A DNA stretch of 64,000 nt from Candidatus Gottesmanbacteria bacterium (GTDB lineage: Bacteria; Patescibacteriota; Microgenomatia; UBA10105; UBA927), in NCBI GenBank assembly GCA_963711735.1, contig CAVQFA010000005.1:7525-71524 (forward strand). Direction: 5' to 3'. The notes below the pieces were generated by a model. The model was not told the DNA's origin, did not search any database, and saw nothing but the letters and a program-made list of their open reading frames with translations. Position numbers and translations under genes: made by a program. Position 1 is the stretch's first letter. The number at the start of each line of letters is the position of its first letter. Below, one piece after another: positions 38,601-41,228 of this stretch.

Positions 38601-40708
38601 GATGCACCGGTTTCGCCTGTCGCACCGCTAGCTCCCGTCGGACCGTTTTCTCCTGTAGCACCCGTTGCTCCAGTTACTCCGGTTGGACCTGATGCTCCCT
38701 GATCACCTGTGGAACCTGTAGACCCTGTTGGTCCGGATGCACCGGTTTCGCCTGTCGCACCGCTAGCTCCCGTCGGACCGTTATTTCCGGTTGCACCTGT
38801 TGCCCCAGTTGGTCCTGTTATACCGGTTTCTCCCGTTGCACCTTCCGGTCCGTTTTGTCCTGTAGGTCCTGTTGCCCCAGTTGGTCCTGTTATACCGGTT
38901 TCTCCCGTTGCACCTTCCGGTCCGTTTTGTCCTGTAGGTCCTGTTGCCCCAGTTGGTCCGAATTCTCCTGATTCTCCTTCAGTACCCGTTGCTCCGGTAG
39001 GACCTGATGCGCCTGAAGTACCTCCTATACCAGTACCTCCTGTTGGTCCGTATAAACCGGTTTCTCCGGTAGCTCCCGTTGGACCATATTGTCCCGTCGG
39101 TCCTGTTTCTCCTGTTGCTCCGGTTGACCCTGTTGCTCCGGAAGGTCCGGTCGGTCCGTTATATCCAGTCGGACCGGTTGCACCGGTAGGTCCGCCAATA
39201 TTTCCCGTTGCTCCTGTCGGTCCCGTAACGCCACCGCCACCGCCTCCACCTCCGCCACTGCCTTCACCGACCGCTGTCCATGATCCGCCGTTATACCAAT
39301 ATAATTTATTATCAGTCGTGTTGTAATAAAGAGCTCCGGCTCCCATAGCAGTCGGGGCAGAGGAGTATCCGCCGACTTGTATCTGACGGGTAAATTTCGC
39401 ATCAGAGGTAATGATGAGTGTCTGTGCAGGGGATATCACAATATTACCAAAAGCAGTCCTAATATCTGTATCTGTATCAAAAGAAAGATTACTCTGTATA
39501 TTTATCGGTCCTCCGCTGAATGACTTGATTGTATCTGTCAGAAGCGTTCCATCTACTGATAAATTACCACCGGTATACACATTTCCATTTGCATCTACGG
39601 TAAAATGAACGATTTCCGACGGACCATTCGTGAATTTTATAAAGTTATAGTGTTCGTTAGTATTTCCGACATTGGCGTATATCACATTTCCGGTTGTCAG
39701 ATTTGCATTCCGGATATCAATGGCGTTATTTGTACTCACATTGGATCTGATCTGAACCTGACCTTCTCCGTTTGGAGCAAGTGTTATGGATCCGTTGGTA
39801 AATGATGGGGTAGTGATGGTGACTGTTTCGCCGGTGATGGAAAAATTACCGGTTTTTGCAACAATTGCAGGATTTGCACCGGCAAGCAAAAGTACCCCAT
39901 CGCTTCCAATCATAGGAATTACTGTCGAAGATTCTCCTGAGTCGTCCGCTATATGGACAGCTGTTTTTATACGTATTCGTGGTGTAGATTCCGGAACATC
40001 TTTTATAGCTTCCGGATTTGGCGAGTAATGAAAGCCCAAATACACATATTCATGGGTAAAATATGAATCCCGCGGAATCATTGAGTCACCATTTAGCGTA
40101 TCGCCAAGTTTCACTTCGACACGTCCTGATGGGTCAGGTTTCACATTTTTCGTTGCAGATGTCCATATTGGCGTCCCGCCGTTTTCAGTTGTATACAGGG
40201 AAAATTGCATCACTCCGGGCTGGGTAACCGGTTTTTCTTCACGATCCTTCACTATACCGCGGAACGCGATGATCCAGGTGTTGTCATCAGCAGAAAAACC
40301 ATTGTTTGTGGCTTTATTACTATATTGTGAAAGACTACCGGCAGATGCAGGTAATTCTGTTGCGCGGGGGAAAAATGTCCTGAAAATGATGTTTTGGCGG
40401 TTTAAAAGAAGGACTGCCAGGATTAACAGAGCGCCCCCGATCGGGAAGAAAAGAAAAGGAAGAACCGATCGTCTTTTTGGGACGCTTTCGCTGTTGATGA
40501 CTATTGTTTGCGGTACATCCGAAGCAGGTTGTTTGAGGGTATTTATATCAGTCGGCTGCTTCGTATCCGTTTCAATCGTATTTTCTGACGTTCCCCATTG
40601 GATAAATTTATTGATGGAAGCCCGTTTTCTGGCTATTGTGGATGGGGCAGTGCCATTCCCGGAAAGGGAATCAAGGTACGCGTTAACGGATTCGGCAGGG
40701 ATACGCAT
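20649..40708 (-). CDS. Giant collagen-like (Gly-X-Thr)n triple-helix-repeat surface protein, about 6,700-6,860 aa if intact. It has an N-in TM anchor, a beta-rich stalk, about 4,800 aa of collagen and a C-terminal tail-fibre-like domain. It is fragmented by many apparent +/-1 frameshifts.
   Basis: ORF-track pieces in the collagen frame: 35768..40708 (starts [17 protein letters not shown] helix [21 protein letters not shown], then [19 protein letters not shown]...), the middle of 33577..37725, 32423..32872, parts of 31193..31762 and 30449..31144, and 20649..31673 from about 30800 down (about 2,000 aa of [16 protein letters not shown]..., then a ~1,370-aa non-collagen C-terminus ending ...RFNWWIIN). 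Other frames of the same DNA give Q/E-rich and R-rich shadow ORFs. Confidence 0.8.
24850..30150 (-). repeat. About 20 near-identical tandem copies of a 261-bp (87-aa, 29-triplet) unit inside the collagen gene, built from 45-bp (15-aa) sub-repeats G-x-[15 protein letters not shown].
   Basis: Identical 85-aa shadow ORFs at 25076, 25337, 25598 and 25859, spaced 261 bp apart. Protein unit: [87 protein letters not shown]. Confidence 0.85.
32900..39240 (-). repeat. Degenerate 9/18/45-bp collagen-triplet repeats ([13 protein letters not shown] and [22 protein letters not shown] types).
   Basis: Periodic ggtcctgattctcctgttgcacctgttgatcct-type DNA on the + strand. The collagen frame is visible in ORF 35768..40708 and the middle of ORF 33577..37725. 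Confidence 0.7.
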
Positions 40709-40712
40709 AAAA

Positions 40713-41228
40713 TTATCCGGATGTCTTATAATTTACTTCAAACCAAATGAGAAATTGTTCTACGTCGTTTGTATAGTGACGGACGGTTGTTATGGCTGCG
40801 CCTTCCTGTTGGAGCGCTTGTTCAAATGCACCAAGGATTGAGATTTTCGATACTGCTTTTTTGGAGTGGGGAAGGACGTTGGCAATATCGGTAAATGGTG
40901 TCGATCGTGTATAGTTGTGTGCGGTGAGATACGTCCAAAAAATTCTCAGAGCCGATAGTCTGCGGTTGATAGTTGCTTCCGGTGTATGTGATACGGATTG
41001 GCTCTTTACATACGCAGTGATCGTTTCCTTGGAGATTGAAGTTACGAAGTCCTGTATGTTCTGAGGTTCAGTCGTTTCTACCCAAATTGACTTTGCTATC
41101 CATGTCAGAAAATTCCGAAGGTCAGTCAGATAATTTTTAATGGTCTTTTTTGAAGACCTTTTTTCGGAAAGAAATTCGGAAAATTCTTTTTCTAGTTTGG
41201 CTTGATAATAAAAGACATTAGACTCCAT
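40713..41228 (-). CDS. Tandem integrase-type SAM-like core-binding (CB) domains, as in the XerC/XerD N-terminal domain. Most likely the true N-terminus of the giant gene, separated from it by a 1-nt frame discontinuity at TAATTTTATG (40706-40715).
   Basis: Helix-1/helix-4 pairs match XerD: [16 protein letters not shown] ... [17 protein letters not shown] (compare XerD TLAAYRRDLSMMVEWL ... SARLLSAVRRLFQYL). A second copy, [16 protein letters not shown] ... [16 protein letters not shown], is split across the stop and the next ATG. No catalytic R-HxxR-Y domain follows. Confidence 0.55.

Follow-up and report, generated by a model that had tools for sequence, protein, structure and literature searches.

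A probable gene fission inside an integrase-type core-binding domain at the start of a giant collagen-like fibre gene of a Gottesmanbacteria bacterium

Tyrosine recombinases (XerC/XerD, lambda Int, IntI and XerA; Pfam families PF02899 and PF13495) are the described proteins that the N-terminus of the gene pair reported here resembles, in sequence above the Pfam thresholds, in the four-helix fold of an AlphaFold2 model, in a basic surface and in the R/K residues of an NRRLSxLR helix. The pair lies on the minus strand of a stretch of 64,000 nucleotides (nt) of a Candidatus Gottesmanbacteria bacterium (contig CAVQFA010000005.1), called the window in the following, and consists of a small open reading frame (ORF1) and the giant fibre gene that begins directly behind it with ORF2. 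The fibre itself resembles bacterial collagen-like proteins (Bacillus BclA with its GPT repeats, Streptococcus Scl1/2 and the Pasteuria fibres), which share its long Gly-X-Thr arrays (PF01391); the Thr residues of BclA are O-glycosylated. The predicted layout of a cytoplasmic helical DNA-binding-type domain, one transmembrane (TM) segment and an extracytoplasmic part seems comparable to that of ToxR/CadC and RodZ, and the HTH domain of RodZ binds MreB. Pairs of genes related by fission or fusion ('Rosetta stone' pairs) are similar in that fused and split forms coexist and the split genes are adjacent. Gene fissions normally fall between domains.

The locus differs from each of these systems. 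Unlike the tyrosine recombinases it lacks a catalytic domain, its core-binding (CB, SAM-like) domain is duplicated in tandem and followed by a TM segment and a giant extracellular part, and the second copy is distributed over two polypeptides. The stalk has about 4,800 triplet residues, in contrast to tens to hundreds in BclA and Scl, and the fibre is predicted to be anchored by an N-terminal TM segment that carries a cytoplasmic CB module, instead of by an LPXTG motif or exosporium attachment. Compared to ToxR/CadC and RodZ, the domain is of the CB type and not of the wHTH or XRE-HTH type, and the outer part is a giant fibre. In contrast to the usual fissions, the cut lies inside a four-helix domain and is kept across a clade. 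We regard it as likely that the split is a genuine and conserved gene fission inside a protein domain, the two half-domains of which would reassemble in trans.

ORF1 (41228..40713, minus strand) encodes a protein of 171 amino acids (aa), and sequence analysis of these 171 aa revealed neither a signal peptide nor a TM segment. Its stop codon TAA (40715-40713) is followed by tttt (40712-40709) and by the ATG (40708-40706) that opens ORF2 with 1646 aa, in frame +1 relative to ORF1; the junction TAA-tttt-ATG thus occupies 40706..40715 of the minus strand, and the region as assembled reads TCCGGATAATTTTATG. As a gap of 4 nt leaves no space for a promoter or a terminator, the two cistrons are presumably co-transcribed and probably translationally coupled. 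A promoter and terminator scan of 40300-41850 gave signals at background level only. In the frame of ORF2 the closest stop upstream is located at about 40734, so that a single-base change can join the two frames only within 40716-40733. NCBI/ENA lists a protein identical to ORF1 on a 371-kb contig, and a Logan assembly (run ERR12037368) has one too; in the latter the next gene also begins 4 nt downstream.

The domains of the pair were identified by profile searches. ORF1 aa 14-103 matched PF02899 (Phage_int_SAM_1) with an E-value of 1.2e-14 and 54.7 bits (cut-off 22.3), and the four-helix bundle of CB domain 1 comprises ORF1 aa 4-103 (40920..41219, minus strand). Taken alone, ORF2 aa 3-42 covered positions 43-82 of this 83-position profile, its second half only, with an E-value of 5e-3 and a score below the cut-off, and the start region of ORF2 matched positions 169-222 of the hidden Markov model (HMM) of the family with an E-value of 5e-11. 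When ORF1 minus its last Gly, the residues DNF and ORF2 were joined to one model (656 aa for searches), a second match to PF02899 was obtained, which was full-length (profile positions 3-82 of 83, E-value 1.1e-9, 38.9 bits, cut-off 22.3). Helices 1 and 2 of CB domain 2 are encoded by ORF1 (aa 128-167; 40728..40847, minus strand), and helices 3 and 4 by ORF2 (aa 6-42; 40583..40693, minus strand). An earlier sequence-only reading of this DNA had claimed tandem integrase-type CB domains, a second copy that straddles the stop, and a stop, tttt and an ATG in another frame; the domains and the straddling copy were borne out, the latter by a full-length match that appears only with the joined ORFs, and the positions and quoted strings proved correct. 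The profile match clearly exceeds what chance would give.

The AlphaFold2 model of the joined sequence, which was based on a 34-row alignment of database proteins, had a mean pLDDT of 90.2 and showed two four-helix bundles. The helices of domain 1 comprise residues 4-22, 27-47, 67-79 and 84-103 (pLDDT 90-98), and those of domain 2 residues 128-141, 146-167, 178-190 and 195-214 (pLDDT of the last two 95-97). A model from the single sequence was poor (pLDDT 58.6). The break between ORF1 and ORF2 falls at residues 169/173 of the joined model, between the helices 146-167 and 178-190, and both the alignment and the model place it in CB domain 2, in the loop that connects helix 2 to helix 3. A comparison with the PDB using Foldseek retrieved CB domains of tyrosine recombinases as nearly all of the top matches, including the isolated N-terminal domain 3nrw (TM-score 0.74, root-mean-square deviation 2.7 Å), the CB domain of lambda Int 2oxo (TM-score 0.68), IntI 2a3v, lambda Int 1z19 and XerA 4a8e and 5hxy, and a PDB sequence search found nothing at E<=0.01. 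From sequence and fold together, the assignment as CB domains is safe. Two checks that had been proposed together with the sequence-only reading, an HMM search of ORF1 against the Phage_int_SAM models and a structure prediction of the joined N-terminus, both turned out in its favour.

That reading had also held that no catalytic domain follows and that the gene is not an integrase, and this was confirmed. Neither ORF1 nor ORF2 aa 1-1136 nor the last 1393 aa of the fibre gave a Pfam match to the catalytic domain PF00589. In comparisons with the NCBIfam equivalogs of XerC/XerD, only about the first 96 of about 295 positions could be aligned (2-96), with a score of 52 bits where the cut-offs are 330-335. 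As a search for the catalytic domain showed it to be absent, the gene pair is, judged by its sequence, not a tyrosine recombinase or integrase.

With the 656-aa joined model as query, a word-indexed homologue search yielded no matches, and an exhaustive HMMER search yielded 1318 cluster representatives with E<=1e-3, 576 of which reached E<=1e-10, with a predominance of matches to query positions 318-570. The best 150 matches were re-aligned. They include 54 giants, the longest with 5657 aa, whose start is no more than a few residues away from that of ORF2 in the window, so that they open with one half of a CB domain; another 49 giants carry the two CB domains fused ahead of the TM segment, and 10 matches are free-standing proteins of 168-185 aa that match ORF1 from end to end. 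The domain combination had not been recognised in the sequence-only reading; it belongs to a large family, in which fused and split members each make up roughly half. Literature searches found no description of this architecture.

To place the window among its relatives, 82 loci were compared, namely 80 from species-representative genomes, the locus L001 from a JGI metagenome contig and the window itself, and stop-to-stop frames were scored with the family HMMs. The split arrangement was found in 40 loci and is kept in 38 species-representative genomes. A further 19 loci encode a fused two-domain form, 22 encode giants with single or repeated CB-type matches, and one (L052) has no CB domain in the DNA examined. 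The titles of the 80 loci mostly name Patescibacteria or members of the Microgenomates group (Gottesman-, Woese-, Shapiro-, Collier-, Blackburn-, Levy- and Pacebacteria). Many loci, including L004-L008, L010-L012, L016-L018, L036 and L060, carry the titles 'uncultured Gammaproteobacteria/Pseudomonadales' or 'Candidatus Bathyarchaeia archaeon'; on loci of the Microgenomates type these are probably placeholder labels or the result of binning contamination.

Of the 40 split loci, 36 had their junctions measured; L008, L012, L025 and L036 were recognised by the upstream ORF1 and gave a different alignment to the model. For the 36 measured loci, the end of ORF1 falls at model positions 159-171 and the start of the giant at positions 162-176, the values for the window being 167 and 169. 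The stop codon is TAA, TAG or TGA, the distance from stop to start ranges from -47 to +1041 nt, and the distances fall into overlaps (ATGA, TAATG), 2-25 nt, 116-157 nt and 400-1041 nt. The giant is in frame 0 relative to ORF1 in nine loci, in frame +1 in 13 and in frame +2 in 14. The two genes remain adjacent in every split locus. L001, which has the same divergent LeuRS upstream as the window, may serve as an example: the ORF1 homologue ends with TAA TAA, followed by ac and ATG, and the giant collagen-like ORF starts 5 nt past the first stop in the -1 frame. When fused proteins were aligned with split pairs joined end to end, the start Met of the window fell on that of L001.

Core residues are conserved in both halves of the split rows: the part in ORF1 has F135, L139, Y152, D155, F159 and W162, which the fused relatives also keep, and the part in ORF2 has Y184 and R200. 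This suggests that selection acts on both halves. In a neighbour-joining tree of the outer domain most split loci, including the window, form one large clade, a few fused forms are nested within it, and one small split group stands apart; with 150 aa as its basis, the tree is rough. As in gene fission, fused orthologues exist, the parts are adjacent, and the break lies at positions 159-176 in all measured split loci. Because the same loop is broken with varied distances, stops and frames, the comparison argues against a hidden indel, a recurrent sequencing error and a programmed frameshift alike.

Downstream of the half CB domain, ORF2 contains one predicted TM segment (aa 82-104; 40397..40465, minus strand), which is preceded by KRRS. 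It is the sole strongly hydrophobic stretch (Kyte-Doolittle maximum of 2.54 over 19 aa), and an equivalent is present in the aligned relatives. As ORF1 has neither a signal peptide nor a TM segment, the CB module is most simply predicted to be cytoplasmic and the remainder to be outside. The following N-proximal domain (about aa 140-385; 39554..40291, minus strand) has about 250 aa, is predicted to be extracytoplasmic, and is the most conserved part of the family (HMM E-value 6e-128), with G195, G271, P280, G293, P312, G316, G362, F369 and V371 invariant in the alignment. The collagen-like Gly-X-Thr repeats extend over about 14.4 kb (24820..39240, minus strand), and PF01391 (Collagen) matched ORF2 aa 470-1136 with an E-value of 4e-85, so that the TM-anchored fibre predicted in the sequence-only reading was also found. 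The C-terminal non-collagen region has about 1390 aa (20649..24819, minus strand; stop at 20649-20651) and no recognisable C1q-like or V-type end domain. The non-collagen regions at both ends of the fibre matched no Pfam family.

No single ORF spans the repeat region. The Gly phase runs on from 39.2 to 24.8 kb, with at least nine hops of the Gly-X-Y frame in this assembly, at about 35880, 35060, 32550, 31700, 31300, 31250, 31100, 30980 and 30890; read through these hops, the gene spans about 20 kb. One hop is caused by an extra A inside CCGG (TCCAGGA, where neighbouring repeat units have TCCGGA or TCAGGA), and several recur in the repeated unit GGACAACAGGACCCACAGGAGCAACCGGGTCC, in which one base is apparently missing. 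The hops could be due to repeat mis-assembly or could be real lesions.

The following course of events is proposed. The ancestral form, still encoded by many relatives, would be one giant type-II membrane protein consisting of two cytoplasmic CB domains, one TM segment, the outer domain, the long Gly-X-Thr stalk and the C-terminal region. In the clade of the window the gene would have been severed within CB domain 2, in the loop that joins helices 2 and 3, leaving a soluble ORF1 protein with CB domain 1 and the first half of CB domain 2, and a giant that starts with the second half. The half-domains would pack in trans and rebuild the bundle of CB domain 2, and this reassembly would dock ORF1 together with CB domain 1 non-covalently on the cytoplasmic tail of the fibre. 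Reassembly in trans is suggested because each half keeps the hydrophobic core of a whole domain and because a pair of helices taken from a bundle would hardly be stable by itself.

The tandem CB module is basic, with a median isoelectric point of 9.5 and a net charge of +8.5, and both copies have conserved K/R residues at corresponding sites (31/150, 89-90/200-201 and 95/207). It probably binds nucleic acid without catalysis, a suggestion that is made with less confidence than the fission. With similar reserve, the fibre may be viewed by analogy as a DNA-binding protein that is tethered to the membrane with a ToxR-like topology, or the module as a cytoplasmic adaptor; like the HTH domain of RodZ, it may have a protein partner. 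It is tempting to speculate, although this is rather doubtful, that the cut in CB domain 2 is a split-domain docking device, in which ORF1, as a soluble DNA-binding-type protein, would be held at the membrane by complementing the two helices in the cytoplasmic tail of a glycosylated surface fibre and could be released or recruited upon host contact. Such a device would be a previously undescribed link between cell surface and chromosome in episymbiotic candidate phyla radiation (CPR) bacteria.

Several points weigh against this picture. The AlphaFold2 model is that of an artificial fusion and not of a heterodimer, and we infer the binding of the two proteins to each other. The E-values of the Foldseek matches are weak (0.08-0.4), and the argument for DNA binding is made only from homology and charge. 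The charge flanking the TM segment is +2 on each side, which leaves the topology undecided. The assembly carries indels, and the CCGG at the junction lies in the sole interval where a 1-nt change fuses the frames. Lastly, the collagen region changes frame repeatedly, so that this genome may lack an intact copy of the giant gene.

Among the alternatives, the one that survives best is that the split is real and the halves no longer pair. ORF1 would then be a free-standing CB protein, e.g., a DNA-binding regulator, and the two helices of the giant would be vestigial or have another partner. The distance between the genes indeed exceeds 100 nt in about 15 loci and is 400-1040 nt in no fewer than six (L012, L014, L020, L023, L031 and L047), five of them with NYN or 23S_rRNA_IVP genes in between. 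Because the genes are so far apart in some loci, strict coupling cannot be required. Against a loss of pairing, the hydrophobic core and the conserved Y, R and W positions are kept in both halves in about 40 species-level lineages, adjacency is kept in every split locus found, and the instability expected of two lone helices also speaks for a partner. Loss of pairing is thus regarded as unlikely.

A clearly smaller probability is assigned to an assembly or sequencing indel, by which a spurious base, e.g., in the CCGG at 40716-40719, would have introduced a stop into what is really one fused gene. The window itself gives grounds for this suspicion: one base less in the junction CCGG would yield a complete CB domain 2, fused homologues exist, one collagen hop is an extra A inside a CCGG, and the LeuRS gene in the same window (ORFs 41830..43827 and 43760..44536, plus strand) is broken by a +1 frame change due to one extra base in TTTCCGG at about 43775 (43765-43785). 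At this site the intact LeuRS of L001 has EPFANFFAHG, and the window would have EPFRSFYAHG once one base is removed; the break in this essential gene is most likely an assembly indel. On the window alone a hidden fusion would be a reasonable reading; it is overruled by the comparative evidence. The closest relatives (L001, L002, L009, L011 and L025) are all split at the same loop, the stop is combined with a canonical ATG that is aligned with the start Met of the relatives, which is not expected from a random indel, and the second assembly has the same ORF1 length and the same 4-nt spacing. The sequence-only reading had offered either a 1-nt indel that hides a fusion or two tightly coupled ORFs; the second option is favoured and the first was not upheld, as the same loop is broken in 40 of the 82 loci.

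CCGG was also considered as a systematic error motif of this assembly. It is present at the LeuRS indel and at one collagen hop, but other hops lie elsewhere, and the candidate was rejected. At the junction, such a motif is judged to be irrelevant in view of the comparative data.

Just as improbable is a decaying pseudogene, i.e., an integrase-like remnant beside a fibre gene that is broken in this genome. The frame changes in the collagen region would fit decay, but they sit in near-identical repeats, a common assembly failure, and the indel in the essential LeuRS gene likewise points to assembly errors rather than decay. Moreover, the N-terminal 1646 codons are open and conserved, with the HMM match described above for the outer domain, and the break between ORF1 and ORF2 is ancestral and not a recent lesion.

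Programmed recoding, by a +1 ribosomal frameshift in the window (4-nt gap, +1 relation) or by stop read-through in a few relatives whose two ORFs share a frame and are parted by a stop alone (L019, L026, L028, L056 and L062), is the least probable explanation and is already largely refuted by the comparison, because frames 0, +1 and +2 all occur, the 36 split loci, unlike prfB/dnaX-type genes, share neither a frame relation nor a slippery motif nor any motif at the stop, stops are double in L001 and L028 (both TAATAA), and spacers can have 116-1041 nt, some with NYN or 23S_rRNA_IVP genes.

The findings bear on how these genes are annotated. Giants of 2590-3620 aa and their partners of about 170 aa (P0002, P0003, P0004, P0036, P0104 and P0154) lack a catalytic domain, but JGI and NCBI give them the name 'site-specific recombinase XerD' or 'site-specific integrase'. 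PF02899, which is used as a marker of integrases and prophages, here marks giant surface proteins and their small partners, and counts of mobile elements in CPR genomes are inflated because such members are labelled XerD or integrase. An intra-domain fission in 38 species-representative genomes would be a natural case of fragment complementation, for which the fused relatives provide the controls. The genes are among the largest of very small genomes, and the fibre with its cytoplasmic module is a candidate for host attachment or contact sensing.

In several relatives the two halves are separated by longer spacers. A conserved structured element with a conserved G-run was observed between the ORF1-like gene and the giant in L004 (1923-2005), L005 (3850-3946), L006 (3867-3967), L008 (3848-3937) and L036 (3741-3844), and in a weaker form in L051 (3172-3268) and L040 (3311-3430), in spacers of 116-160 nt. 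It consists of a closing stem of 9-12 bp with compensatory changes, an inner hairpin that presents UGGGGGGA, a U-tract and (A/G)ATTATA(C/T). RNAfold z-scores reached down to -4.7, no match was found in Rfam, and RNAalifold applied to a MAFFT alignment of the spacers did not recover the closing stem. A covariance model of the element and single-sequence folds found it only in that subclade and not in the window. The motif CTGGGGG(A/G) occurs 24 times in the 81 fetched loci, nine times within about 75 nt after the stop of the ORF1-like gene. Such an element might act as a terminator/promoter cassette, as a processing site or as a regulatory RNA.

Other spacers contain genes. Those for 23S_rRNA_IVP four-helix-bundle proteins (PF05635), flanked by inverted repeats, lie between the halves in L012 (3567-3984), L020 (1505-1926) and L023 (2951-3933), the Pfam assignment having been tested for L012 and L020. 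Genes with an NYN domain (PF01936) are present at this position in L014 (2058-2866) and L031 (2846-3547), Pfam-tested only for L031. The break point thus behaves like an intergenic site that tolerates insertions and on which small cassettes land, and where genes are inserted between the halves the giant gene must be translated on its own. As a further speculation, the fission itself may have been caused by the insertion of a structured cassette similar to an intervening sequence into the sequence that encodes the loop.

The surroundings of the pair in the window are chromosomal CPR genes, including those for LeuRS, ComEA, ComEC, ArgRS, LepA, a sugar epimerase, GT2 and DegT proteins and PMT_2 glycosyltransferases. 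Three type-IV-pilin-like genes (18300-20448) abut the 3′ end of the Thr-rich fibre gene. On the same side a glycosylation cluster (6889-16202) encodes an epimerase/dehydratase, three GT2 proteins, two DegT aminotransferases, a methyltransferase, a hexapeptide acyltransferase and a PMT_2 protein, which by analogy would fit an O-glycosylated fibre. A further PMT_2 gene (47380-48879) is found on the other side, beyond ORF1, LeuRS, ComEA and ComEC. In the Logan contig of run ERR12037368, one gene of 1158 aa over a span of 3477 nt corresponds to the two LeuRS parts (LeuRS-N and LeuRS-C) plus ComEA of the window, and the fibre gene is broken after 151 aa at a site where the window is open. Because these gene calls disagree, the two assemblies differ by indels. 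ComEC is present in the window as two in-frame ORFs (45459-46358 and 46374-47405, plus strand), a Competence domain and, after a stop and 15 nt, a metallo-beta-lactamase domain, and the Logan contig calls the same two ComEC genes.

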